Shown: in pieces, positions 1 through 58,953 of the stretch
Layout of the letters: the number at the start of each line of letters is the position of its first letter
How positions within the stretch are numbered: position 1 is the stretch's first letter
Assembly: GCA_052327205.1 (NCBI GenBank)
Contig: CM126224.1
Location: forward strand, 23,808,001 to 23,872,000
Length of the DNA stretch: 64,000 bases
From: Somniosus microcephalus
Taxonomy: Eukaryota
Direction: 5' to 3'
Translations under genes and position numbers: made by a program
Notes under the pieces: model-generated
The model's input: only the letters and a program-made list of their open reading frames with translations
The model's database searches: none
What the model was told of the DNA's origin: nothing

Positions 1-2304
1 TCAAGGACAACCCAAATTTTAAAAGGGGTTCATTAGTTCATCTTTCCCTCCAAATTCAAAGTGCTGGCCCTGAACGCTTGCTGGTATTTCAACACGTTGA
101 GTTCATGTGGCTCATACTTGATCTTTACTGATAAGTCTGTACTTCCCCTTATCAGACTCCCATCTCACAGTAGGGCTACCTGACCAGACCCACTCACTGG
201 CTCCAAGGCTCTCAGACTGGAACCAGATCCCTGCCCGCTGAGGTAGGGAGGAGAGGAGGTGGTCATCTCCATGGGACATTCGACTATAGTTCAAAGTGAC
301 ACATTCAAACAATCCCTCACTATGCTGCATATTCAGTTCCAAAGTCTAGAACCTTTAAAGCGCTACCCTGTCCCCATTTGAACTAAAGTCCAAATGAAAT
401 ATTTAGTTCAGTGAAATAGGCCAACATATTTTCGTAGCTTCTGGGTTTAAGCTGGCCAAAAGGGGATTTTACATAGCTTTCAGCTACTGAGAACAGAAAA
501 TCAGCATCTTGAAAGCTGCTCCATTTTCTAGCTGTATACTTTGTAAAATTTAGAGCGTCTAGTTGTATGTAGACTATTGATGTAATGGCTGAAAAAATGT
601 TTTGCAGGGAAAGATGACTTTGGCTGCGGTTGCTGAACGAGACGTCTATTTTACTAGAAACAGGTTTGACAATAATTTTGTGGCGGTAATAACTATTTTC
701 ACTACGTACAGCTACAGAATGAAGTCTTTTTTAACTTAATTGAAGACACTATTGAAAGAAATATATTTCGTCTTGTAATAAAAGCAGTATGGAGAAAACA
801 TTCAAAGCTAAAATAATCAGAAGCAATTTGTGTTCACGAGCAGAATGATGTACTGTTTTTTCTTGCATGCTCTGCACTGAATCAGTTTTGAGGTTGTGGA
901 GAAACTTAAAACCTATAATAAAATAATGAACAACAGTTAGAGTAGCATATCTTTAAATTAAAAAAAACTTTAAAAAAAGAAAAGCATGGAATCGGATACA
1001 AAAGTTCAGGAGAATCTTTATAGATTATATAGATGTACAGCTGAAATTAACCAGTGATTATGAAGGGGAAATTAAATCCAATTCATTAATTAAATTAATT
1101 TCCCCTTATCTGAATAGAGAGACTGCTATGTAAGTCCATACAGTCTCCTCCCATTTGGATAAGTCCTTTACTACTCTTACTGGTGTCTGCCAATATATGG
1201 TTTGGCACCACACAAGAGCCCAGTAAAACTGCAACACCATTACACTTTTTTTGAACTGGGCACCATTATATGTTTCTCCATATCTTAATATGACTTGTTT
1301 TAGGGTAACCTTTCCTCCCATCTTCTGATATAAAAAAAAATCCAAGTTCAGTAATACCACCTATGCATAAGGTTTCAGTCACAACTAAAGGGAAAAATAT
1401 ACACAAAGCATGTATTTATCCATATGGAAAGCAGATGTTTTGTAAATTTACATATGAGCAACATCAAACTGGTAAAAGAATCAGCTGATTCACAAGGGAT
1501 CGCTTTTTGCAGAAAGCCACATCAGCTTTCCTACATGCTTGCTCAGCATCATTATAAGCCCAAGTGTCTCACTTCATTTCAAATTCACAAAAATCAAATG
1601 CTATGCCGAGCAAATCATGTTAAGGCAGAGAGAAACTCTACATCTTGCAGGACTAACCCAATAAACTCTGGCATTGGCGCTTGGAAAGGTTGGCAAGATA
1701 CCAGTTAAGACCAGAGAGATTACACCATAATCTTGGGAAGAAATACAATCTCTTCATTAATATTTTATAAATTATTATTGAGATGATGTAAAGAAAAAAA
1801 AATGCAGATCGAAGCCAGAACACAGATCCCACTGTACACTTGGCGTCTCCGATCTGTGGGGCTCCAGGTCTCATGTGAAGCCCTGTCACCCAGCAACTAC
1901 AGAATAATTAAACTTCCTTGAGAACTGCTTATGATGGCAAACTGCACCAGGAGTAAGATGTCTGCCATTTCATCAAAACAGTAATCTACTTGTCTGTAAT
2001 CATGTAATGATTAATAATGTTTCATAATATGTGTCACGCTGGGTAAAACTATTTGTTTTGGATATTATTGTATAAAATAATAGTTGTTACTAACTTTTCT
2101 AGTAGAGGTCAGTATGCTCAATAGTTTTTGTGATATACATGTCAAATTGCCTCTTAATAATTTTTGCAGGTTCTGTCTAAATAGTACATAAAAGATCAAG
2201 AAATAATCTAGGAACAGCGTAATTATATAACACAATAAGAAAAAGCCTGTGTTTATATTAAATCTGGATTTCTGCTAGAGTAATGGATAATCAGAAAGGG
2301 AGGG

Positions 2305-2521
2305 TGTCATAAATCGCAACTTCTACAAGAAGTACTACTGAACGGCCAGCTGAGGGCGCCGCCTGAGGAGTATAAATACTCGGGCGTGGGCCCACCTTGG
2401 CCAGAGACAGTCTGGAAACAGGAAACTAGTGACTACTAACTAGACCTCCATGTTTTGTTACAAGTCGATTAAAGCCTTGCTTTATGTACAACCAAGTGCG
2501 TAGTGAGTCTTTATTACGTCA
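2305..2521 (+). repeat. 5' LTR
   Basis: Starts TGTCATAA and ends CGTCA. TATAAATA at 2371-2378 and ATTAAA at 2468-2473. Matches 6586-6802. Confidence 0.95.
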
Positions 2522-2621
2522 ATTTAATCGACTTGTTATCGTCTCCACGCCTTGGGCGATTCGGAACAACCAGCTGCAACTTGAACTGCAGAAAGGGACC
2601 TGGGCAAGAAACTGATCCATC

Positions 2622-5600
2622 ATGGATAAACTCCTTAGACCTGCTCGTCTCGACCTGGACCCGAATGCAACTGCGGCAGCGAAGGTATGGAAGCATTGGT
2701 TTCGTACCTTTAGCAACTTTCTTGAAGAATGTGGGGCGGGTGCCTCTAATAAGTTACGAATGCTTATTAACTACATATCCCCTCATGTGTATGATTATAT
2801 TGAGGACTGTATAGACTACAACGCTGCTATTGAAATTTTACAGCAGCTATATGTCAAGTCCCCGAATGAAATCTTTGCTTGACACCTACTGGCCACAACT
2901 CGGCAGCAGCCTGGGGAATCACTCAATGAATTCCTCCAGAAACTTCACAGGCTCAGCAAAGATTGTAACCTTAAAGCGGTTACAGCTGAACAGTATCAAG
3001 AGGAACTAATCCGCGATTCCTTTATCAATGGGATTGCGTCCCCTTTTATATGTCAGCGCCTGCTGGAAAATAAAACCCTCAATTTACGGGCTGCTTATGA
3101 CCAGGCATGTTCCCTGGACTTGGCCAAGAAGAATGCAGACACTCATCTCCCACCACATGCACAGGCGGCAGCTATCACCCTTAATAAGTCTTTCGATAGG
3201 TCTCGAGTGGATGCCCCTGCTGATGATGACTCTACTCTAACGGACAACGACCCTACCCTAGAGGCCTTTGCTGATGACGACCCCGCCCTAGCAGCATCCT
3301 GGCAATCGGGAAGAAAGTGTTTCTTTTGTGGAGGTACGTTCCATTACAGAAAATTTTGCCCGGCTCGTAATGCAACCTGCAATCATTGCAGCAAGAAAGG
3401 ACACTTTTCCGAGGTATGCCAGTCACGGGCCTCTGCTAACAAGAAAGGCTGCTCCTCTAAAGTATACCGGTCGAGAGCTCCTGTTAGCTTCACAGCTGCT
3501 ATCTATGGAGCTGCTCCTCCCCCAAGAACCACTGCTAAGGCTACAGCTGCCGAAGGAAAAATTACCCCTCCTCCCATCACAGCTGTTTTTCCCCAAAGTT
3601 TGTCCCATGCAGCTACGAAGGTTTCAGTAAATGGGCACACTCTAAGCGCGCTAATCGACTCCTGCAGCTCTGACAGCTTCATTAGTAAGCGGGCTGTCAG
3701 CAGGTTAAAACTGCGCATTTATCCCTCGGACAGGGAGATTGCAATGGCTCCAACGACTCTGACCACCAATTCTTTTGGCTTCTGTCTTGTCAACCTCATC
3801 CTCAATGGTCGCACGTATCCCTCCACCCGGCTCAGAGTACTCGAAAACTTATGTAGCGATGTGCTTCTGGGACAGGACTTCCAGAAGCAGCACAAAAGAC
3901 TCACTTTTGAGTTTGGAGGGTCGAAGCCGGAGCTTACCATTTCTAAGGTGCCGTTTTGTGCGCTCTCGGCGGCCTTACTCGGTGAGCCCTCCCTGTTTGC
4001 CAATCTCTCCCCCCGCTGTAAACCCATAGCCACCAAATCGCGGCGCTTTAGCCAAGACGACCGAGCATTTATCGAGGCAGAAATCTCTCGCCTTTTAGCT
4101 GACAGTATTATCAAGCCGTGTTTATCCCCCTGGCGGGCTCAAGTCGTCATTGTGAAAAACCCTTTAAAACAACATAAGAAACGTCTGTGTATTGATTATT
4201 CGCAGACTATTAATCAATATACTGATCTGGATGCCTACCCACTACCACGCATAGACGACATGGTCAACAACCTTGCCAAATACAAGGTATTTTCAACCTT
4301 CGATTTAAAGAGCGCGTACCATCAGGTACCGCTGAAAGACTCTGACAAAAAGTATACGGCCTTTGAGGCCAATGGTCGGCTTTATCAGTTTTGTCGCCTT
4401 CCATTTGGGGTCACCAATGGGGTGGCCGTCTTCCAACGGGCAATGGACGGCCTAGTCCGGCAAGAGAACTTGACGGATACCTTTCCATATTTAGACAATA
4501 TCACTATTGCCGGCCATGATCAAAAGGAGCATGACGCTAATCTTCAGAGATTTTTTGACGTTCTCCGTCGTCGCCACTTAACATTAAATGAATCCAAATC
4601 GGTGAAATCAGTGCCATCAGTGAACATTCTCGGCTACTGGGTGGGCAACAGTGTTATTAAACCGGACCCAGAGCGACTTCGTCCACTTCAGGAGCTCCCT
4701 CCCCCTACAAATCTCGGCTCTCTTCGTCGGGCACTTGGCATGTTTGCTTATTACGCAAAGTGGATACCTCACTTCTCCGATAAAATACAGCCCCTGCTTC
4801 ATGCGAAGTCTTTTCCATTAGAAGCAACGGCTATTTCTGCCTTCAACCTCCTCAAACGACAGCTGGAGAAAGCCACGCTTCGCTCCATTGATGAAAACCT
4901 TCCTTTTGTGGTCAAATGCGATGCATCGGAGGTGGCGATCTCGGCTACCTTGAATCAAGGTGGTCGGCCCGTGGCATTCCTATCCAGAACCTTACAGGGT
5001 AGCGAGCTCCATTACCCCACCCCCCGTCGAGAAGGCGGCTACAGCCATCATCGAGGCTGTACGCCAATGGAGTCATTTCCTTGCTCGGCGTCATTTCACG
5101 CTCATAACTGACCTGCGCTCCATGGCCTTCATGTTGGATAACCGAAAGCGCACGAAAATCAAAAATAATAAAATTCAACTCTGGAGGATGGAGCTGGCCG
5201 CCTTTGGATATACTATCCATTATCGACCCGGCAAACAGAATGTGGCCCCAGATACCTTCACACGGGCATTTTGCTCTTCAATGTCAACGTCGACTCTGGC
5301 GGATCTGCATATGGACTTATGCCATCCTGGCGTTACCCGTATGTTGCACTTTGTGCGCTCCAAAAAATCTACCATTCTCAATGGAGGACGTAAAGAAAAC
5401 ATGCTCCTCCTGTAGGATTTGTGCAGAATTGAAACCACAATTCTTCCGCCCATCAGATGATTTACTCATACATGCAATGCAGCCTATGCAGAGGCTCAGC
5501 ATAGACTTTAAAGGACCATTGCCTTCGTCGACGCGGAACACCTACCTACTTACGATGGTAGACGAGTATTCATGCTTTCCCTTTGCCTTCCCCTGTCCTA

Positions 5601-6451
5601 ATATGCTTACCTCTACGGTAATTAAATGCCTCGAGCAGGTCTTTTCCCTCTGCGGGAGGGCCAATTTTATCCACACGGACCGGGGTCCCTCCTTTATGTC
5701 GAGTGAACTTAAAAGTTATCTCTCCCAACGGGGAATCGCCTTGAGTAAGACGACACCATATCACCCAATTGGCAATGGACAGGTTGAACGATACAATGCC
5801 ATCATCTGGAACGCTGTCCATCTGGCTCTGAGGTCACGCAACCTACCAGACCAGCAATGGGAAACTGTGCTCCCCGACGTGTTACACTCTATCAGGTCTC
5901 TTCTCTCCACATCCACTAATGTCACACCTCATGAGCGATTCTTCAAGTTCCGGCGTCGCTCTACACATGGGACATCTCTACCCTCATGGTTGGTGGCTCC
6001 AGGCCCTGTGCTACTCCGGAGGTTCGTCCGGTCGGCCAAGAACGACCCTCTCATTGACGAGGTGGAGTTAATGGAGGTAAACCCCACGTATGCGCACGTG
6101 TGGTACCCCGATGGCCGGGAGTCCACCGTCTCGCTCAGAGATCTGGCTCCCTGCCCAACCGGTCACACGGGCCCGAATGATGTCAACACTCCGCACCCCT
6201 ATGAAGATGACGCCCTACCTGGGACATCGAGGGATCTGCCGGCAGTGCTACTGGATCAACTCAGGGAGCCAAACGCTACCCATAGGATGGCCACCCGAAA
6301 TCAGGACGCCGGACAATCTCCGGCTACAACCCAGGATGAGGCCAGCTCTGCGCTTGTGGGGACCTGCACCCAGAGCCATGATATTCCCAGGCCTCCACAG
6401 GACAATCAAGACGACGCGGACTCTACCAACTTACCGGTACGGGCCAAGTGA
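2622..6451 (+). pseudogene. Disrupted single gag-pol polyprotein of the Gypsy element
   Basis: ORFs 2622-2882 and 3120-5111 share a frame, split by a TGA at 2880-2882 (likely from CGA). +1 frameshifts occur near the C-run at ~5015-5026 and the A-run at ~5362-5368. Motifs: Zn knuckles CFFCGGTFHYRKFC and CNHCSKKGHFSEVC, protease LIDSCS, RT LCIDY/FDLKSAYHQ/LPFG/YLDN, RNase H CDAS, integrase HHCC and D-D-E (IDFKGP, TDRG, VERYN). Confidence 0.93.
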
Positions 6452-6585
6452 CCCAGGGACCAGGACACGGTCCGGGGAGACTTGCCTTCCAGTCACAAGC
6501 AGAAAGCTAAATGACTATGGCTATTTTTGGTCCGCCTAGTCCGTTAAAGGAAGACTGGACTTCCAAACCTTTTAGGGAGGAAGAA

Positions 6586-6802
6586 TGTCATAAATCGCAA
6601 CTTCTACAAGAAGTACTACTGAACGGCCAGCTGAGGGTGCCGCCCGAGGAGTATAAATACTCGGGCGTGGGCCCACCTTGGCCAGAGACAGTCTGGAAAC
6701 AGGAAGCTAGTGACTACTAACTAGACCTCCATGTTTTGTTACAAGTCGATTAAAGCCTTGCTTTATGTACAACCAAGTGCATAGTGAGTCTGTCTTATGT
6801 CA
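6586..6802 (+). repeat. 3' LTR
   Basis: Directly follows the polypurine tract, ends TATGTCA and is followed by the TSD GAGGG. Confidence 0.95.
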
Positions 6803-6885
6803 GAGGGTATAAAATATAAAATATATTTGTAATTTAAACAGGTTCAGAGGACACCACAAACCATGTATTGTTACCATATTAGAAT

Positions 6886-7230
6886 CGCTCCTCCCTAGCT
6901 CTGTAGCCTCCTCCGGCCCTACAAGCCTTCGCGATCTCTGTGCTCCTCCAATTCTGACCTCCAGCGCATCCCCGATTTTAATCATTCCACCCTTGGCGGC
7001 CGTGCCTTCAGCTGCCTAGCTCTGGAATTTCCTCCCTAAACCTCTCCGCTTCTCTACCTCTCTCTCCTCCTTTAAGATGTCCCATAAAACCTGCTTCCTT
7101 AACCAAGCTTTTGGTCATCTGTCCTAATATCTCCTTATGTGGTTCAGTGTCCAATTTTGTTTGGTAATGCTCGTGTGAAGCGCCTTGGGACAACTTTAAA
7201 GGTGCTATTTAAATGCAAGCTGTTGTTGCT
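6886..7230 (+). mobile_element. L2-clade LINE 3' fragment
   Basis: Reverse-complement similarity to the L2 3' end at 7598-7950. Ends in a GTTGTTG tail. Confidence 0.75.
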
Positions 7231-7597
7231 GACATCTGAACCAGAGATTAGATTACAGCCCTACTTAAATACGAAGTGCCTTTATTTTGCATAATATGAA
7301 CTAAACTGGACTGTTTTTTCCCCAAAGTTATTTTTGTTATGAATGAGCAGAGGAGAAGTCATTGATTGAGAAACAATCGTGACATTGTCACTGCGGAATC
7401 AGTGTGTCACGTAATTCACAGGAGGGTCTAAATCAGTGAATTACTTTACAGCTGTGACACTAAATTACAAGGAAATTAAAAGCCTAATAAGGTGGAAAAA
7501 GAAGGCGAGACAGGGGTCAGGAGCTTTCAAGCTGCTCCATGTTCACAACCTGTATTCAAACTGTCTTTCCTAGGCCTATCACATTAGGCAAACACTG

Positions 7598-9278
7598 AAC
7601 AACAACAACAACAACTTGTATTTATATAGCGCCTTTAACGTAGTAAAACATCCCAAAGCGCTTCACAGGAGTATTTAAAGACAAAAAATTTGACACCGAG
7701 CCACATAAGGATAAATTAGGGCAGGTGACCAAAAGCTTGGTCAAAGAGATAGGTTTTAAGGAGCGTCTTAGAGGAGGAAAGGGAGGTAGCGAGGCGGAGA
7801 GGTTTAGGCAGGGAATTCCAGAGCTTAGGGCCAAGGCAACAGAAGGCACGGCCACCAATGGTTGAGCGATTATAATCAGGGATGCTCAAGAGGGCAGAAT
7901 TAGAGGAGCGCAGATATCTCGAGGAGTTGTGGGGCTGAAGGAGATTACAGAGATAGGAAGGGGCGAGGCCATGGAGGGATTTGAAAACAAGGGTGAGACT
8001 TTTGAAATCGAGGCACTGCTTAACTGGGAGCCAATGTAGGTCAGTGAGCACAGGGGTGATGGGCGAACGGGACTTAGTGTGAGTTAGGACACGGGCAGCC
8101 GAGTTTTGGATGACTTCAAGTTTACGTAGGGTGGAATGTGGGAGGCCAGCCAGGAGTGCATTGGAATAGTCAAGTCATAGAAACATAGAAACATAGAAGA
8201 TAGGAGCAGGAGTAGGCCATTCAGCCCATCGAGCCTGCTCCACCATTCAATGAGATCATGGCTGATCATCCAAATTCAGTACCCTGTCCCTGCTTTCTCC
8301 CCATATCCCTTGATCCCTTTAGCCTTAAGAAATATATCCAACTCCTTCTTGAATATATTTAATGAATTGGCCTCTACTGCCTTCTGTGGTAGAGAATTCC
8401 AAAGGTTCACCACTCACTGGGTGAAGAAATTCCTCCTCATTTCTGTCCTAAATGGCTTACCCCTTATCCTTAGACTGTGACCCCTGGTTCTGGACTCCCC
8501 AACCATCGGGAACATCCTTCCTGTATCTAGTCTGTCCAGTCCTGTCAGAATTTTATAAGTTTCAATGAGATCCCCTCTCATTCTTCTAAACTCCAGTGAG
8601 TATAAGCCCAATTGACCCAATCTCTCCTCATACGTCATTCCTGCCATCCTAGGTATCAGCCTGGTGAATCTTCGCTGGACTCCCTCCATGGCAAGAACAT
8701 CCTTCCTCAGATAAGGTGACCAAAACTGCACACAATACTCAAGATGTGGTCTCACTAAGGCCCTGTACAACTGCAGCAAGACATCCTTGTTCCTGTACTC
8801 AAATAGTATAACACTAGAGTAACAAAGGCATGGATGAGGGTTTCAGCAGTGGATGAGCTGAGGCAAGGCGGAGATGGACGATGTTACAGAGGTGGAAGTA
8901 GGTGGTCTTTGTTATGCTGCGGATATGTGGTCTGAAGCTCATTTCAGGGTTAAATATGACACCAAGGTTGCGAACAGTGTGGTTCAGCTTCAGACAGATG
9001 TTAGGGAGTGGGATGGAGTCAGTGGCTAGGGAACGGAGTTTGTGGCAGGGACCGAAAACAATGGCTTCGGTCTTTCCAATATTTAATTGTAGGAAATTTT
9101 TGCTCATCCAGAACTGTATGTCGGACAAGCAGTCTGACAATTTAGACACCGTGGAGGGGTCGAGAGAAGAGGTGGTGAGGTAGAGCTGGGTGTCATCAGC
9201 GTACATGTGGAAACTGACGCTGTGTTTTCAGATGATGTCACCAAGGGGCAGCATGTAGATGAGAAATAGGAGGGGGCC
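7598..9278 (-). mobile_element. 5'-truncated L2-clade LINE interrupted by a CR1 insertion
   Basis: Minus-strand peptides YADDTQLY...LQLNIGKTE (8814-9206) and LHWLPV...GGRAF...PKLWNSLP...LKTYLF (7716-8051). (AAC)n tail at 7598-7615. Confidence 0.9.
8177..8804 (-). mobile_element. CR1 LINE 3' fragment nested in L2
   Basis: Peptide LYRALVRPHLEYCVQFWSP...RTRGHSLRI, (CATAGAAA)n tail, near-identical to the 3' end of 39266-41918. Confidence 0.92.
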
Positions 9279-29916: not shown

Positions 29917-30761
29917 CGAATACACAGAAATCACCAAAGAAAGATAGTAAAACATTGACCTAAAAATCTGGTTGATGCCGCACATTTTTTACAGGTGTAA
30001 AACAGGCCCTAAAACATCCAATATGGCGGGTGGCGTGCATGTGCACATTCCAAGCTGGCCATTTTGGCAGAGGTAGAAAAGGAGGTGTCTAGGGTCTGCG
30101 CCTCAAAGAAGTGATATGCAAATAGGCCTAACGCCTGATTGAGGCCCGTTTGCAAAATTGGGCTGCGCTGAATGCAGTCGGCATCAGGCCTGCTGTGTCC
30201 AGGAAAATGTGGTCTACATGTGGCTTAACCAGCAGTCCTTAAAGAGACCCCTGGAGGCTGCACCAAAAAGGTACACTTGTTACAAAACACTTACCTGAAT
30301 GTGGAGTTGGGAGCAGCAGCAGTGTCAATGACCGTTGCCAGCCCCGCTCAGCCCCCTCCCGATTGCTCCCCTCTCCTGCCCGCCTCCCCCCATCCCAGGA
30401 CCAACCTGAGAACCGCCGCTAGCGATACAGCGGCCCGATATCCAATGTCGATTTACCGGCGAGCTGCCTAGAGACGCCCAGCACATGTCCGCAGCTTGTC
30501 AGTCTGAATTAAATGAGGCCCATGGCCCAATATCGGGTGTGCCTCTGGCCTACCAGTTCCGGCGCATAGATTGTTCCCTGTGTCCACTTCGTGCCGGCCT
30601 GCTTCTGATTTCTAAGCCATTTTTAGGCTGATTTGTTTATGTGGGGGGGGGGGGGGCTCGTGTGGAGCATAAACACCAGCATAGGCCTGTTGGGCCGAAT
30701 GGCCTGTTTCTGTGCTGTACATAATATGTAATTATTTGTTTTTCCATCAATAAATTTCCCT

Positions 30762-32205
30762 CCCAGTCACTGCCCCACCCCCTCACCCTTTCCCCCCCAC
30801 CCCATCTCTGCCCACCCCCCACCCCTCAACCCCGTCACTGCCCCACCCCCTCCCCCCACCCCCATCACTGCCCCATCCCCTGTCACTGCCCCACCCCTCC
30901 CCCTCCCCCCAGTCACTGCCCCAACCCCTCTCCCCACCCCAGTCAATGCCCCACCCTCTCTCCCCCCCACCCCGTCACTGCCCCACCACCTCCCCCTCCC
31001 CCAGTCACTGCCCCACCCCCTCCCCCCACCCCAGTCACTGCCCCACCCTCTCCCCCCACCCCAGTCACTGCCCCACCCCCTCTCCCCCACCCCAGTCACT
31101 GCCCCACCCCCACTCACCCCACCCCCTCCCCCTCCCCCCAGTCACTGCCCCACCCCCTCCCACCACCCCAGTCACTGCCCCACCCCCTCTCCCCACCCCA
31201 GTCACTGCCCCACCCCCTCTCCCCACCCCAGTCACTGCCCCACCCCCTCACCCCTACCCCCTGTCACTGCCCCACCCCCTCCCCCCACCCCCAGTCACTG
31301 CCTCAACCCCTCCCCCACCCCCAGTCCCTGCCCCACCCCCTCCCCCCCACCCCAGTCACTGCCCCACCCCCTCTCTCCCCACCCCAGTCACTGCCCCACC
31401 CCCTCCCCCCCGTCACTGCCCCACCCCATCTTCCCCCACCCCCTCTCCCCCACCCCAGTCACTGCCCCACCCCCTCTCCCCTGCCCCAGTCACTGCCCCA
31501 CCCCCTCTCCCCACCCCCATTCACTGCCCCACCCCCTCCCCCCCACCCCAGTCACTGCCCCACCCCCTCTCTCCCCACCCCAGTCACTGCCCCACCCCCA
31601 CTACCCCACCCCAGTCACTGCCCCATCCCATCTCCCCCCACCCCCTCTCCCCCACCCCAGTCACTGCCCCACCCCCTCTCCCCCACCCCCATTCACTGCC
31701 CCACCTCCTCTCCCCACCCCAGTCACTGCCCCACCCCCCAGTCACTGCCCCACCCCTCTCCCCCACCCCAGTCACTGCCCCACCCCCTCTCCCCCACCCC
31801 CAGTCACTGCCCCACCCCCTCTCCCCCACCCCAGTCACTGCCCCACCCCCTCTCCCCCCACCCCAGTCACTGCCCCACCCCCCTCACCCCAGTCACTGCC
31901 CCACCCCCTCTCCCCCCACCCCAGTCACTGCCCCACCCCCTCTCCCCCAACCCCAGTCACTGCCCCACCTCCTCTCCCCACCCTAGTCACTGCCCCACCC
32001 CCTCTCCCCCCACCCCAGTCACTGACCCACCCCCTCTCCCCCACTCCAGTCACTGCCCCACCCCCTCTCCCCCAACCCCAGTCACTGCCCCACCCCCTCA
32101 CCCCCACCCCAGTCACTGCCCCACCCTCTCCCCCCCACCCCCTAGTCGCTTCCCGACACCCAGACAATGCCCCACCCCCACCCCCAGTCACTGCCCCCTG
32201 CCCCA
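30762..32205. repeat. C-rich minisatellite, ~30-bp unit CCCCAGTCACTGCCCCACCCCCTCT(CCCCA)
   Basis: Dozens of tandem copies of the core CAGTCACTGCCCCACCC with variable C/T spacers. Confidence 0.97.
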
Positions 32206-33481
32206 CAGTGACTCACTATCTTGTTCCCAGTAGCTACTGTGCTCCCTTCAAATAATTCCATTAAAAAGTTGACAGGTATGTGAATTGGTGTATAAAATTC
32301 ACCAGTGTTATTGTATAAAAACTTCGCCCTTCGGGCTCTCTACTTATGCAGCAGGGTTAGGTTTTGGCGCGTTCTGCAACTTCTCAGAACGAGCATTCCT
32401 ACTTTTTTCCTGCAACCCAGAAAGTAAAAGTCAATAATTACAGAAACGAAAAGAAAACCTACAGAGAAGTCTTAGTTCATTTATATCTTTAATTATCAGC
32501 AGTAAATGAATGTAATTAACTATGATTTAATGCATATATTGCACAGGTCACCATTAAAATTGTACTGAAATTTCTTTCCTTGCAAGATACCATCACTATG
32601 CGTATCAGATTACACAGAGACACTACCTCCTTTTGTCAACCTTTACAGACTGCACTTGGATGTTTTATACACAGTACACCCATCAGCACACCCTAGTCTT
32701 CCATCAATCCTTTTTTGTACAAAATATATCTATTTACAGGCTGATCGGTAAAGACAATTTAACCACTGAAGGTTTGTTTTCTCTATTGCTGTAAGTGGTA
32801 CATTTTAAGTAATAAAACCAGCATCAAAATGTGCAGGAACCTGCAACATGTTAAATATGGTGTTATATTACAATTCAGTTTCAGCAGCAAAGGCGATCCC
32901 AGATAATATCTGCTGCAGCTTTGGAGAAGCTTTTAGGGTAGGTTTTCTGTTGGAGGTGGGGGTGTACAATTGCGTGCACAACTGGTTGTCCACATGTTCT
33001 TGCGTAACCATCAGAAATATACATCTTTAAAAAAGAAAGCAGAGATAAAGTGTGTTGTGGGACGCAGCTTGATTTGGAAGATGCTACGAAAAATATAGAA
33101 TGAAAATGGCAGCGATGAACTGCAGACATGCACATGCCTGCAGCCCCTTGTTGACTTTGTGCTTGTAGGCGCATAAGTGGCAACACTAGTCGTGCACATA
33201 CAAGCACAAAGACAGCAGGGGACCTCACACATATATCTGTAGTTCAGCCCGACCCGCCCTCATTTATTGTAATTGTATCCAAAGTATTTCCCTTGCCATT
33301 TGTCTCACATATGAAAAATGTTGGATGCAACATCAGAGCAAGCGAACTGCACAGGTGAGAAGGCCACAGATAACGGACAATGGGTGTGTGACAACACCGA
33401 TACCAGACAGTAATATGTGCCAGAAATTGGAGACGTGAAACTGAAGATAAACAATTTGAATATTCTGACAAGTATGCAAAA

Positions 33482-39265: not shown

Positions 39266-41918
39266 AGAAACATAGAAGATAGGAGCAGGAGTAGGCCATT
39301 CGGCCCTTCAAGCCTGCTCTGCCATTCAATGTGATCATGGCTGATCATCCAAATTCAGTACCCTGTCCCTGCCTTTTCCCCATATCCCTTGATCCCTTTA
39401 GCCTCAAGAAATATATCCAACTCTTTCTTGAATATATTTAATGAACTAGCCTCCACCGCCCTCTGTGGCAGAGAATTCCACAGGTTCACCACTCTCTGGG
39501 TGAAGAAATTCCTCCTCATTTCAGTCCTAAATGGCTTACCCCTTATCCTTAGACTATGACCCCTGGTTCTGGACTCCCTGGCCATCAGAAACATCCTTCC
39601 TGCATCTAGTCTGTCCAGACCTGACAGAATTTTATAAGTTTCGATGAGATCCCCTCTCAATCTTCTAAACTCCAGTGAGTATAAGCCCAATCGACACAAT
39701 CTCTCCTCATACGTCATTCCTGCCATCCCAGGTATCAGCCTGGTGAATCTTCGCTGCACTCCCTCCATGGCAAGAACGTCCTTCCTCAGGTAAGGTGACC
39801 AAAACTGCACACAATACTCAAGGTGCGGTCTCACCAAGGCCCTGTACAACTGTAGCAAGACATCCTTGTTCCTGTACTCGAACCCTCTTGCTACGAAGGC
39901 CAACATACCATTTGCCTTCTTAACCGCCTGCTGCACCTGCATGCTTACCTTCAGCGACTGGTGCACAAGGACACCCAGGTCTCTTTGCACTTCCCCTTCT
40001 CCCAATCTATTGCCATTCAAATAATAATCTGCCTTCCTGTTTTTGCCACCAAAGTGGATAACCTCACATTTATCCACATTATAGTGCATTTGCCATGTTT
40101 CTGCCCAATCACCCAACCTGTCCAAATCGTACTGGAGTTTCCCGACATCCTCCTCGCAGCTTACACTCCCGCCCAGCTTTGTGTCGTCTGCAAATTTGGA
40201 GATATTACATCCAATTCCCTCGTCCAGATCATTAATATATATTGTGAACAGCTGGGGTCCTAGGACCGATCCTTGCGGTACCCCACTAGTCACTGCCTGC
40301 CACTCGGAAAATGACCCGTTTATTCCAACTCTTTGCTTTCTGTCTGCCAACCAGTTCTCTATCCAAGTCAATACCTTGCCCCCAATCCCATGTGCCTTAA
40401 TTTTGCACGCTAATCTCTTATGTGGGACCTTATCGAAAGCCTTCTTAAAGTCCAAATACACCACATCCACTGGTTCTCCCTTATCTATTTTACCAGTTAC
40501 ATCCTCAAAAAATTCCAGTAGATTAGTTAAGCACGATTTACCTTTTGTAAATCCATGTTGACTTTGTCCGATCCTGTCACTGCTTTCCAAGTGCTCTGCT
40601 ATTACATCTTTTATAATAGACTCTAGCATTTTCCCCACTACCGATGTCAGGCTTACCGGTCTATAATTCCCCGCTTTTTCTCTACCACCTGTTTTGAATA
40701 GTGGGGTAACATTAGCTACCCTCCAATCCATGGGTACCGTTCCAGAGTCTATCGAGTTCTGGAAGATGACCAGTAATGCATCTACTATCTCTAGGGCCAC
40801 TTCCTTAAGTACCCTGGGATGTAGACCATCAGGCCCTGGGGATTTATCGGCCTTCAGTCCCATCAATTTTCCTAACACCATTTTCCTACAAATACTGATT
40901 TCTTTCAGTTCCTCTCTTTCATCAGATCCTATGTTCCCCGGCATCTCTGGGAGGTTATTTGTGTCCTCCTTTGTGAAGACAGAACCAAAGTATGTATTTA
41001 GTTGGTCTGCCATTTCCTTGTTTCCCATTATAAATTCCCCTGATTCTGACTGTAAGGGACCTACGCTTAACTTCACCAATCTTTTTCTCTTCACATATCT
41101 ATAAAAGCTTTTACAGTCAGTTTTTATGTTCCCTGATAGCTTACTCTCATATTCTATTTTCCCTTTCTTAATTAATCCCTTTGTCCTCCTTTGTTGACTC
41201 CTAAACTGCTCCCAATCCTCAGGATTATTGCTTTTTCTAGCCAATTTATATGTCCTTTCCTTGGATCTTATGCTATCCCTAATTTCCCTTGTTAGCCATG
41301 GTTGAGTCACCTTTTTTGTTTTATTTTTATGCCAAACTGGGATGAACAAATTCTGTAGCTCATCCATTCAGTCTTTGAATGTTTGCCATTGCCTATCCAC
41401 CGTCAACCCTTTGAGCGCCATTCCCCACTCAATCCTACCCAACTCGCTCCTCAGACCATCGTAGTTTCCTTTATTTAAATTTAGGACTCTTGTCTCTGAG
41501 TCAACTACTTCATTCTCCATCTTAATGAAGAATTCGATCATATTATGATTGCTCCGACCCAAGGGGCCTTGTACAACAAGATTGCTAATTAATCCTTTCT
41601 CGTTACATAATACCCAGTCTAAGATGGCCTGATCTCTGGTTGGTTCCTCGACATATTGGTCCAGGAAACCATCCCATAAACACTCCAGGAATTCCTCCTC
41701 CACAGTATTGTTATTAATTTGGTTGGCCCAATCTATATGTAGATTAAAGTCACCCATGATGACTGCTGTGCCCTTATTGCACGCTTCTTTAATTTCCCTT
41801 TTAATGCAATCCCCAACCTCCACCTTACTGTTTGGAGGTCTATATACCACTCCCACTAATGTTTTTTTCCCCTTAGTATTTCTCAATTCTACCCATACAG
41901 ATTCCACATCATCAGAGC
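39266..41918 (-). mobile_element. Young 5'-truncated CR1 LINE; ORF2 (partial APE endonuclease plus RT) with one in-frame stop
   Basis: 41368-41907 (VVYRPP, MGDFN, ILDWVL, SNHNMI) is in frame with 39355-41367 (KSPGPDG, NYRPVSLTS, YLDFKKAFDKV, GVPQGSVLGP, FADDTK), separated by a TGA at 41368-41370. CR1 3' UTR and tail present. Confidence 0.96.
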
Positions 41919-54000: not shown

Positions 54001-55659
54001 AAGCAGCAATTCAACCTTGGGGTTCTGTTCTCCATTGAAGCTTCACTCTGCGGACTTGCAGACAATTGAGAATCCTTTGATTAAATTACAGCCATACAAA
54101 TGTTCCCAATCATATTACGCCTATATCATAGTTCATGTATGTCATGGCAATTTTGATATGTTTACGGTTTACTTAAAATAACTATTCCATCGACAACACA
54201 GTTATCAGCCCACGCTCCTGACAGGGCAGGACACTGAGCACGTTCCTAATAGTTCGAAAGATCAGTGCAATTATTTTCGAAAAATACCTGTTGACATTAT
54301 TTTTATGATTTTTGATGTGCTGGATTTTATGTGCGGCACTTACTGTAAAAACGGAGCCGCACAACAATGTATAGCAACTGCCTTGGAAGAACAGAATCAT
54401 AATTTCTAGCAGACAAAATCGTTTTCAGTCATGCTCAGCTTGAGTTCAATTCCGGGAGTAGGAATAGGAATATACAATTAAAAGTCGGCGTATCGAAACC
54501 TCTCGGAGCGCGTTGCTTTATGCAGACACCCTGTCGAGCATACAGGTAGTTCATTCCCTTTAATTGTTAATGATGTGCTCCTCCTTATCCGCAATTGCAT
54601 TTATTCTTTTATTCCATGTGGGCTTGTCTCGCTATTTCTTTTGTTTTAATCGTTCGTTGTGCGTTTTAATAGTTCTATTTTACACACTTGTTGAAAACTG
54701 CTTCTCTTTATGACATTTAAGTCAAACGCACAAACAACTGCAATTGGACTTCATACATTGGAGGACCTAAAAATCTATAATATTGTCTCGGGCCTTATGT
54801 TAAGATTGACTCCACCGCACTACCCGACACACACGCTTACTGGGTGCTGGCTTAACATTTCAAACCTTAGGTTCGAATTCGACTTTCTTTCTTAACACGC
54901 CGCCTTACTCGCAGAAGTGAAAGAATTGTGTTGAACTTGCTCTCTCGAGGTTCACCCCTCCGGTTCTCGATGTGACTGATCTAAGTACTGTGCGTTAAAA
55001 AGCCACCAGCCACGGAAAAAGTAACTGAAATTATCATATGTGTTCAGAACTCACAGCTCACTGTACAGTGTTTGAATACTGAGTTAGCAGTTCTAGCCCT
55101 CAGGAATGCTAATTGAAAAGATATCTGCGGGTTTAACAATCTTGGTTAAGAGCTTCCAAGTTTAGTTGAACTGTTCAAATCCTCAGGCTCCAGACAGCGA
55201 CCAAACTCTCAAATGAGTTGAAAATGGAAATCCCCCTACAAGTAATTAAAGGTCAGGTTTTGGCCCCATTTAAACACAAACAGGGTAGCTGATATTACTG
55301 GAGTTTCCCTGGCGTGTTACTTGTTATTTTACCACCTGCTATTGTAAAGCTCTTGTATATCATACATGATCTTGAAACTTTTTAAAAGTTAAAAAATAAT
55401 CAATCATGTCACTCTTGAAGGACTGACGGTATTTCTGTCATAACGCGGAATAAATCAGCGAGCTGGAATGAGGTGTGCTTTGTTTCTTCAGTATTAACAT
55501 CAGAATTTCTGACTCGGCTGAAAGGCACCGCCTCTGTGCATCAACTTGTCACATGAACTCTCAGAAACACTTCAAACAAAGGCCTGCGCTTCTCGGGCCT
55601 CCGCCGTCAAACTTCGCTTTGAGAAAATGAATATCGTCCGCGCCATTCAATTGGTTTAC

Positions 55660-56450
55660 ACCTTTCTCCTTCCACTTTCTCTCCTACCACCTTCCCTCCC
55701 ATCTTTCTCCTTCCCTCCTTCCACCTTTCTCCTTCCACATTCCACCTTTCTCCTTCCCTCCTTCCACCATTCTCCTTCCACCTTTCTCCTTCCCTCCTTC
55801 CACCATTCTCCTTCCACCTTTCTCCTTCCCTCCTTCCACCTTTCTCCTTCCACCTTCCCTCCTTCCATCTTCCCTCCTTCCACCTTCCCTCCTTCCATCT
55901 TCCCCCCTTCCACCTTCCCTCCTTCCATCTTCCCTCCTTCCACATTTCTCCTTCCCTCCTTCCATCTTCCCTCCTTCCACCTTTCTCCTTTCTCCTTTCA
56001 CGTTCCCTCCTTCTACTTTCCCTCCTTCTCCCTTTCTTCTTCCACCTTCCCCCCTTCCACCTTCTACCTTCTCTCCTTCCACCTTCCCCCCTTACACCTT
56101 CCCTCCATACACCTTTCTCCTCACACCTTCCCTCCTTCCACCTTCTCTCCTTCTACCTTCTCTCCTTCCATCTTCCCTCCTTCCACCTTCCCCCTTCCAC
56201 CTTTCTCCTCACACCTTTCCTCCTTCCACCTTCTCTCCTTCTACCTTCTCTCCTTCTACCTTCCCTCCTTCCACCTTCCCTCCTTCCACCTTCCCTCCAT
56301 ACACCTTTCTCCTCACACCTTCCCTCCTTCCACCTTCTCTCCTTCTACCTTCTCTCCTTCCATCTTCCCTCCTTCCACCTTCCCCCCTTCCACCTTTCTC
56401 CTCACACCTTTCCTCCTTCCACCTTCCCTCCTTCCTTACACGTTCCCACT
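55660..56450. repeat. Polypyrimidine/polypurine degenerate tandem repeat (CCTTCC/TTCCACC units)
   Basis: About 800 bp almost free of G on the + strand, with 15-mer-like units CCTTCCACCTTCCCT. Confidence 0.95.
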
Positions 56451-58953
56451 GCCCAAAAGCACTTTGGACTGATTCTGTTGTGAGTAAACACTATGGAGAA
56501 ATCCAGTTTCCTTTATATTTCAGAGGGACGGTTTTTACGTTCATAGAAGAGAATTGTTTTCCCAAAAGGAAATGTAACTCTTTAATAACGAGTTAAAATT
56601 ATAATTAACAACTCATAACTTAAACCAATATGTCAACATATTGCACAGGATTGTAAAATCTCCAACTTTGAAGCAGTATTGCAAAATTTGTACCTCGCTC
56701 GCAGCTTTCTCTCTGTTTTAGGAATATGAATTTCGGATCATACAGCAAGGCCCACTTATTGTCCTGTCGCGTCGACAGATTTACATTAAACTTGCTCTAG
56801 TGCTGTCGCTGTTCTCTCCCCCTCTAATTATTTCCACTCAACTATCTATCTTGGCTGGATCTATTAATGGAACATCTGTCCTTTAATATTCAAAACTGTA
56901 TTTGTATACTAAAAGGACTTTGGAATCATGCTGTATCTTAATAAAATTAATAATGACAATTATAAACGATTCTTTTGGTCTACAATCCGCTTGTCGCACT
57001 TGTTGAAGGAACGAACCTCGAGGCTTGAAGCGATTGTACCCCAAACTCCACTCAACGCAACTTTCACCAGAACTTTATCAAAGGTACGTTTACTGATCTA
57101 AATCAAATCAAGATATGACCGTGTGTTACAGTCCTGATTACAAGAATGGGAAACAACGGGCGGTGAAAGTCTGATGGAAGAACTTCGATTTTTTAAAAAT
57201 TTGTCATTAACAAAAAAAAATACAGAACTGGGATGGGGTAATATTATTTTCTCTTGTATTTAGAACGGACAGACATATCCAGATCCGAGCATATGCCACA
57301 ATAGAAAGAGGTTACAGAATAAAATACGGAACGACCGATTTAACCGAAAGCAGTAACTCTCCAAAGGCGAGTGACACCCTTGTCCTGAAACTCTGATCAT
57401 TTTTTTTTACAAATTCGCCGTGATACCTTAAAACAAGTTCTGACCCTTTCGAATATCTATATCTGTACCCGCGGTGAGGGAAATGCAATAGTGCCCGATT
57501 CACGGGACTTGGATGTGGAAGCTGGCTGACTTAGACTAGAGGACTGATGCCAGCTCAACACTTGAAGCGACCGAAGCGGGGCTGCAGGACTTGCCCTGTC
57601 AGAGGTGTCTGGTTAGTGGTATGTCGGCGGGGGGACTTCTGTTGGTGGAGGTCGGTTTTGGAAAAGTGCTAACTTGCCCGTGGTTTCGCGATTCGGTATT
57701 ATTTTACCTGTGTGTGTGTGTTTGGTTTTAGATGCTCGCAGTTTATCTGGAGAAAGATGTGGTTGATGAGGGGCCGGGCGGCTGCTCTGGCCCAGGTGAT
57801 CATACACCTTCACCATAAACAAGAGACATTCAGAATAATAATAAGGAATACAACTGGTCGGACTAAAGGCAGGTACACCTGGGGCTGTGAATAAAAACAC
57901 AGGCACATATTCTATTCCATTCTGTTTTAAATTGCCGGTTACTTTATAAGAATGGAACGGTGCCGCCGTTTTTCTTACTGTTTCTTATTAAGGTAATTAT
58001 AGAGAAGGGAAATACTTAAGGCATCATTTGGGGTTTGCGGTGTGATTTTATTTCCAAAGCTCAGTCACTTCTTTCGATACATAAATATAGTTCTTGTTTC
58101 TTTTTTTTTAAATGCAACGCATAATCTTCATTTGTTTCGAGAATGATTCTCTTTACTGCAGGAATGACCGCGTGCGGTGTATCGAATCCCCGCAGCATGG
58201 TGTAACTGAGTCAGTCCACAGTAAATCTCGGTATTGTGGCGAACATTGAGACAATTCTGGATACAACTGAAGGTCCACCAAAGTTATCAAACGGCAAAAG
58301 TGTTGCTCGCTGTATAAAACCCGCCGACCTCGGCTTGCTGCGGGATTGCTATTGGAGTGTTATCATTATTGCAGGGTTATTGTAATTCAGAAAGCCAAAC
58401 TGCATCAAATAGGAGATGGATTCGGGCTGGAAGCACTAGAATACTCCAAGAACACGACCCAAACACCCCCCACGCACAGCCAAGTGAAATGAAAGCACTT
58501 CAGAACAAATCCAGGACAGTCCCATACAGTCTCAGTAAGACACACACCCATAGGTTCCGGCCTCAAATCTGTCATCTGCAAATCTATCTGCTCGAAGCAG
58601 CATGTAAAAAAAAACCTAGACACGCACATTAAATATTCTGGGAGGGCTGAATTTATGAGATTTATAAATACTACGGGGGAAACAATGAAACAGATTTGTA
58701 GGCCCCATTGCATTTTTTGCAACGATTTAAAAAAAAGTAAGTATCCCTAATTTTAAAATAAACGCTACCGTAAAATCTCCGCCAATAATACGGAATGGAC
58801 AGCAAGAATTACCATGGAAACAATATTTTGGAGGAAAAAAAAATCTCCAAAAAAAAAATATCGAAAGCTGAGGCTTTACACCGAACCAGGCCCCCGCGAA
58901 AAACTTAACGATACACCCTTGCGTTCTTTAAAAGGACAAGTGGAGAAACTTAC

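Follow-up and report, generated by a model that had tools for sequence, protein, structure and literature searches.

In retroelements of the Ty3/Gypsy group, how is reverse transcription primed when the position directly behind the 5′ LTR holds no TGG-initiated, tRNA-complementary site? This question is raised by an element at 2305-6802 of the window, that is, of the whole 64,000-nucleotide stretch of Somniosus microcephalus DNA that was analyzed (Table 1). The element is assigned to Ty3/Gypsy (Metaviridae) by its LTRs, target-site duplication, polypurine tract (PPT) and PR-RT-RH-IN domain order, and the top match of its RT among solved structures is the Ty3 RT (E 2.5e-36). Both LTRs are 217 nt long with TG..CA ends, and the two copies show 7 differences; a systematic difference between the 5′ and 3′ LTR ends was considered and dropped as private to this single copy. 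The coding frame is interrupted by a stop codon (2880-2882) and by frameshifts in the RNase H and the integrase N-terminal region. Directly past the 3′ LTR (6885-7966) lie two diverged, inverted copies of a repeat that are 79-84% complementary. Elsewhere, the minus strand of the window contains a frame of 670 codons without interruption (39355-41367), which encodes an RT domain (PF00078) and is LINE-like by appearance, and long low-complexity pyrimidine-rich arrays with open frames (30725-32255 and 55522-56596).

Table 1. Features of the Ty3/Gypsy element and their positions in the window.
Feature	Position	Strand	Remark
Target-site duplication GAGGG, 5 bp (left)	2300..2304	+	
5′ LTR, 217 nt, TG..CA	2305..2521	+	
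TATA box (TATAAATA)	2371..2378	+	Predicted start near 2401-2403
Putative self-primer, a stretch of the LTR complementary to the PBS, with ATTAAA at 2468-2473	2460..2473	+	
Conserved AAA^RCCT motif	2471..2477	+	RNase H predicted to cut between 2473 and 2474 (±1)
Single spacer base A between LTR end and PBS	2522..2522	+	
PBS without TGG, complement of own LTR, TTTAATCGACTTGT	2523..2536	+	
Single Gag-PR-RT-RH-IN frame, disrupted in this copy	2622..6451	+	
Two CX2CX4HX4C zinc knuckles (Gag)	3318..3419	+	
RT catalytic motif YLDN, not YXDD	4488..4499	+	
Polypurine tract (PPT)	6574..6585	+	
3′ LTR; at 6741-6754, copy of the segment with its poly(A) hexamer	6586..6802	+	
Target-site duplication GAGGG (right)	6803..6807	+	

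The first-pass annotation of this locus had reported that the PBS position is occupied by an exact 14-nt complement of the element's own LTR, and this was recovered: the 8 nt next to the LTR end contain no TGG, and the PBS is 100% complementary over 14 bp to 2460-2473 and to the corresponding copy in the 3′ LTR, a length that none of 20,000 shuffled LTRs attains (best shuffle, 12). The ATTAAA within the pairing segment, the TATA at 2371 and the double-knuckle Gag that it had listed are likewise present. The family to which the element belongs is abundant, with 2,498 leader candidates at a first look and 377 LTR-PBS junctions with exact flanks. Among 76 distinct junction-type matches, 42 pair at 14/14 positions, 25 have one mismatch and five have two or three; the remaining four, with eight mismatches, are probably no junctions. 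The fold of the whole leader has only modest stability (z -2.15), and an Rfam scan of 2200-2800 gave no match at the gathering score.

Eight families of the S. microcephalus genome share the same geometry, in which an LTR ending in CA is followed by one spacer base and a complement of about 13 bp to the LTR itself. Relatives comprise approximately 87 proteins of 1,250-1,550 aa, with 44-70% identity over RT-RNase H, and all are animal where a source is named (Palaemon, Trichuris, Narcine, Periplaneta, Myxine, and Pycnogonum); a ray protein (P0009) is among them, in keeping with a cartilaginous fish as host. Gag queries led to additional families in the same genome and to 80 metagenome loci, and no relative was found in the viral contigs searched. 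Twenty-five representatives (eight from the S. microcephalus genome and 17 from metagenomes) were picked for the presence of a leader, and their LTR ends were placed by LTR pairs (13) or by the nearest CAATTT (12), the latter being partly circular. The pairing between each LTR and its own PBS averages 13.0 bp and spans at least 11 bp in 21 of the 25, whereas swapped LTR-PBS pairs average 5.2 bp and span at least 11 bp in 16 of 600; the own LTR is the uniquely best partner of the PBS in 20 of the 25. L115, in which the 5′ LTR appears to be deleted, was excluded from the counts of paired positions, and in the other 24 representatives, positions 4-13 of the duplex are 96.7% Watson-Crick, as against 15-36% when the strands are slid. 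The suggestion that the LTR segment and the PBS covary in relatives while staying complementary is borne out by 11 disjoint pairs of close relatives, among which 24 of 27 changed pairs are compensatory. L071 and L073, the LTRs of which are nearly identical, are distinguished by one transversion on each side of the duplex, and the change is found in both LTRs of L071.

A scan anchored at the Gag start, rather than at the leader, was applied to 35 of the 80 metagenome loci (37 had a Gag start, two of them without flank). In 27 of the 35, the duplex lay where it was expected; the strict automatic count is 21, and six further loci, in which the duplex shows one change or is shifted in register (L072, L076, L085, L109, L130, and L133), were added by inspection. 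No such duplex was scored in the other eight (L062, L063, L081, L112, L113, L117, L135, and L140), of which L081 contains a mutated version. Pairing of the PBS with the own LTR is a trait of this clade, and we judge it to be both real and functional.

At the level of individual copies, renewal of the PBS by copying of the primer was considered as a further sign and rejected: the first 100 of the 377 junctions of family F1, inspected by eye, contain no PBS recopied from the primer, and at the tested pair a single compensated double mutant exists genome-wide, the change being absent from the 3′ LTR. L181/L240 (G000:C9:122654300-122659700) bears complementary transversions in the 5′ LTR segment and the PBS that do not occur in the 3′ LTR, which may reflect either chance or quasi-palindrome correction at the DNA level. 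Some further peculiarities of single copies or families were observed: in L166 (G000:C5:184189927-184193382), a copy of family F2, about 20 nt spanning the LTR end and the PBS are locally inverted, probably through a template switch; in L221/L242, also a copy of F2, the 3′ LTR stops at about 4630-4640, three bases past the predicted cut site, and is followed by other sequence; and copies of family F3 (L201-L220) have an A-rich run of variable length between the PBS and the Gag start.

These data bear directly on the identity of the primer. A host tRNA fragment or another small RNA might anneal to the PBS, given that half-tRNA priming is known in copia elements, according to the available part of PMC6317226, and that our comparison with host tRNAs spanned two isotypes only; this would nevertheless be an extremely improbable primer, since the eight families of one genome have eight distinct PBSs, each fitting its own LTR. 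No TGG occurs 0-5 nt past the LTR in any of the 25 representatives. The host screen, a weak one, gave 63 tRNA matches, mostly from one array, and the best match of the PBS to the four distinct tRNA sequences covered was 6 nt; a better tRNA match had been named beforehand as an observation that would count against a tRNA-independent route. A 16-nt pattern search for sources other than the LTR returned mostly copies of the PBS itself. The covariation across families strongly supports priming that is independent of tRNA, and self-priming from the 5′ LTR, whether from an internal segment or from the RNA 5′ end as in Tf1, is very probable.

The segment itself has a conserved end. Its last three bases are AAA in 25 of 25 representatives, followed by C at +2 (25/25) and T at +4 (23/25), which defines the motif AAA^RCCT; upstream of the predicted cut, -11 is A in 19, -10 is G in 24 and -9 is T in 22 of the 25. 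Pairing is kept up to -13 (21/24) and is lower at -14 (13/24), and the distance from the cut to the LTR end is 20-65 nt among the representatives, L115 aside. A canonical poly(A) hexamer lies within the paired segment in 19 of the 25, which is what would be expected if the duplex were a leader hairpin only, serving to mask the 5′ poly(A) signal or in packaging, with a different primer in use. This explanation is improbable. The duplex is kept in six representatives without a canonical hexamer in the segment (L225, L064, L065, L066, L077, and L102), and in two of these (L064 and L065) the hexamer lies farther downstream instead; thus, priming rather than signal masking appears to be the constant. 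Masking, moreover, needs no start exactly one base past the LTR end, yet the PBS begins at that base in every family, an offset that fits priming because the end of a primer has to coincide with the start of the PBS; nor was an alternative primer site found after the LTR end. The duplex and the cut motif are constant, and the overlap with the hexamer is frequent but dispensable. The masking hairpin envisaged by the first-pass annotation may therefore persist as a secondary role of the duplex, but it is not its main one.

A feasible model may be as follows. Transcription, directed by the TATA box, would begin about 70 nt upstream of the cut, and the segment in the 5′ LTR would pair with the PBS by folding back. 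The element's own RNase H would then cut after 2473, behind the AAA of AAA^RCCT, to leave a leader fragment of 55-73 nt that is held through its final 13-14 nt. This position of the cut is assumed by analogy with Tf1, in which RNase H cuts at the primer end: the Tf1 RNA's initial 11 bases pair with the PBS and the RNA duplex is cut between bases 11 and 12, as stated in the available part of PMC7175516. From the leader fragment, RT would copy 49 nt back to the cut to give a short strong-stop DNA, which would jump to the 3′ LTR through the 10-30 nt that separate the cut from the poly(A) site. A need for sequence between these two points would account for the usual position of the primer end at the poly(A) hexamer. 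As a by-product, the same duplex would conceal this hexamer in the 5′ LTR but not in the 3′ LTR. On this analysis, we lean towards the view that a widespread animal Ty3/Gypsy clade without a chromodomain self-primes via an internal segment of its own RNA. Against this view stand the eight metagenome loci in which no such duplex was scored and the absence of recopied PBSs among the F1 junctions inspected.

The earlier suggestion that the copy in the 3′ LTR (6741-6754) could act as primer, via an RNA circle or a second RNA, has in its favor that the complementarity is equal and that the bases upstream of this copy are in the RNA whatever the start site. On mechanistic grounds it is highly improbable: a cut at this copy would presumably remove the acceptor for the strong-stop jump, and the distance to the PBS is 4.2 kb, compared with 49 nt for the 5′ copy.

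More depends on where the RNA begins. If it started at or just before the segment, the primer would be the first 11-18 nt of the RNA, as in Tf1; self-priming outside the chromoviruses would then stand and the claim of an internal primer would fall. An initiator-like A-G-T is placed 11 nt before the cut (the conserved -11 to -9 bases described above), and 11 nt is also the length of the Tf1 primer (PMC7175516, in the part available). In 16 metagenome representatives, no TATA box was found within 170 nt, which also agrees with a start at the segment. In seven of the eight families, representing two subclades of the S. microcephalus genome, TATAA[AG] nevertheless occurs 85-103 nt upstream of the cut, in three of them with a GC box in front, and these conserved elements would be left useless by a start at the segment. 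In addition, the pairing extends 5′ of the initiator-like AGT, to -13 in most representatives and thus past the A at -11, and -13 is a pyrimidine in 20 of the 25, a poor Pol II start that was counted in favor of an internal primer.

Some evidence on RNA ends comes from reads of family F4 (L225) in organism C. On the presumed sense strand, read depth rises at the segment from 5.6 to 28 in X15 and from 83 to 120 in X16, with no rise at TATA+30 in either; in X15, 12 molecules have an end at -18 relative to the cut, although these may be duplicates. The reads stem from 5′, 3′ and solo LTRs alike, may include duplicates, and derive from one study whose species label may differ, so that they weakly favor 5′ ends near the segment, that is, the ordinary Tf1 geometry. 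Reads of family F1 are mostly LTR-only matches in which no start is visible, and a search for poly(A)-tailed retrocopies from which RNA ends could be mapped gave none with the F1 or F2/F3 patterns. A short helix starting at +1 is present with at least 4 bp in 14 of 24 representatives (combined p 0.02, the rows not being independent), and the three-duplex pretzel of the Tf1 type was not consistently found, the flanking fold giving z from -1.2 to +1.3 in 23 representatives. The placement of the segment about 60 nt inside the RNA is thus plausible in view of the TATA boxes and the pairing 5′ of the AGT, while the F4 reads weakly hint otherwise; taken together, a start at the segment seems rather unlikely, and an internal primer remains our preferred reading. 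The gag of F4 is covered by strand-biased RNA reads in X15 and X16, which suggests that this family is transcribed in organism C. Four LTR families that otherwise have little in common (L221, L222, L225, and L226) also share a short AGAGGCAT motif, located between the TATA and the segment.

The position of the clade was examined in a tree of RT-RNase H with 60 rows, in which the outgroups did not include Tf1 and sushi and which was read as unrooted. A branch with support of 100/100 separates all 24 duplex-bearing rows from six chromodomain proteins. The first-pass annotation had seen no evident chromodomain, and none was detected at E<=0.1 in the integrase tail, nor is PF00385 listed for any of the 87 closest proteins (P0001-P0087). 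The clade lies outside the chromodomain Gypsy proteins sampled, and the element is not a chromovirus. It is likely, by analogy with Tf1, that tRNA-free self-priming operates here in an element outside the Tf1/sushi group. Its Gag contains a double zinc knuckle, a feature of the Mag lineage that is not by itself diagnostic.

Of the 24 duplex-bearing rows, 17 have YLDN or YMDN at the RT active site, three have YLDD, and four are unreadable there; thus, Asn is not required for the duplex. The success of Asn in this clade is notable because the equivalent Asp-to-Asn change abolishes transposition of Ty1, as reported in the available part of PMC2148107. An identity with Kuafuorterviruses/Troyka was considered and rejected on the basis of their IADD/VADD/LADD motif (PMC11673190, in the part available). 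It is tempting to speculate that a large animal Gypsy clade acquired self-priming independently, with an internal, tRNA-sized and capped leader as primer that would be cut at a sequence-specific AAA^RCCT site and carry the poly(A) signal region as its final 13 nt, a single duplex that both primes and silences the 5′ poly(A) signal, and an RT that is mostly YXDN; this combination as a whole is put forward tentatively, with a chance that we place somewhat below even.

A second self-priming clade, outside the chromoviruses and with relatives in rays, hagfish, crustaceans, a sea spider, a cockroach and a nematode, would indicate that tRNA priming had been abandoned a further time and with great success, and the clade would presumably present no target for silencing by 3′ tRNA fragments. 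The conserved cut motif and the 13-bp core may also offer a compact system for the study of RNase H cutting an RNA-RNA duplex. Annotation tools that require a tRNA PBS would miss or downgrade such elements.

Some animal Gypsy families are reportedly listed as self-primed in Repbase. For the name 'Selfy', a literature search found no paper, and no prior account of a self-priming, non-chromoviral animal clade was found in the literature searched, although Repbase, subscription journals and supplements may describe this clade. The available parts of the published accounts place self-priming in Tf1/sushi, Tcn1 and the plant TAR copia elements (PMC6317226, PMC10085805, PMC4600332, PMC7175516, and PMC5341516; the same placement is found in PMC5006619, PMC5445492, PMC6934838, PMC3601003, and PMC7472051), and the main text of surveys of molluscs and annelids (PMC6238403 and PMC8556966) contains neither PBS nor primers. 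Within Ty3/Gypsy, self-priming has thus so far been confined to the Tf1/sushi chromoviruses in those parts of the literature, and the present clade would be a second, non-chromoviral one.

Among non-chromoviral elements, the clade resembles the Mag lineage and the MolGy clades in being animal and in having short LTRs (for Mag C, a mean of 174 nt is given in the available part of PMC3601003), and it may already bear a Mag or MolGy name. Among self-priming elements, the TAR lineage of plant Ty1/copia (Houba and Osr-1) is predicted to have acquired the mechanism by an independent origin (PMC6317226, in the part available), so that convergence has a precedent; the TAR elements are copia elements of plants, whereas the present clade consists of Gypsy elements of animals. 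In the Tf1/sushi group of fungi, vertebrates and mosses, which includes Tcn1, self-priming is predicted from LTR-PBS complementarity; this group is described, in the available parts of PMC6317226 and PMC10085805, as a monophyletic sublineage of the chromoviruses, while the present clade falls outside the chromodomain proteins sampled. The closest parallel is provided by Tf1 and Tf2 of Schizosaccharomyces pombe and Tj1 of S. japonicus, which, like this clade, carry a PBS complementary to their own LTR just past the 5′ LTR and use no tRNA, and in which the element's own RNase H frees the primer (PMC7175516, PMC4600332, PMC5341516, and PMC10085805, in the parts available). All three belong to the chromoviruses; their primer has 11 nt and sits at the 5′ end of the RNA, and three duplexes form a pretzel around the PBS. 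By contrast, the present clade has no chromodomain, forms a separate RT clade, and combines a 13-bp core, a poly(A) hexamer overlapping the segment in 19 of 25 representatives and a TATA box far upstream, with no consistent pretzel.
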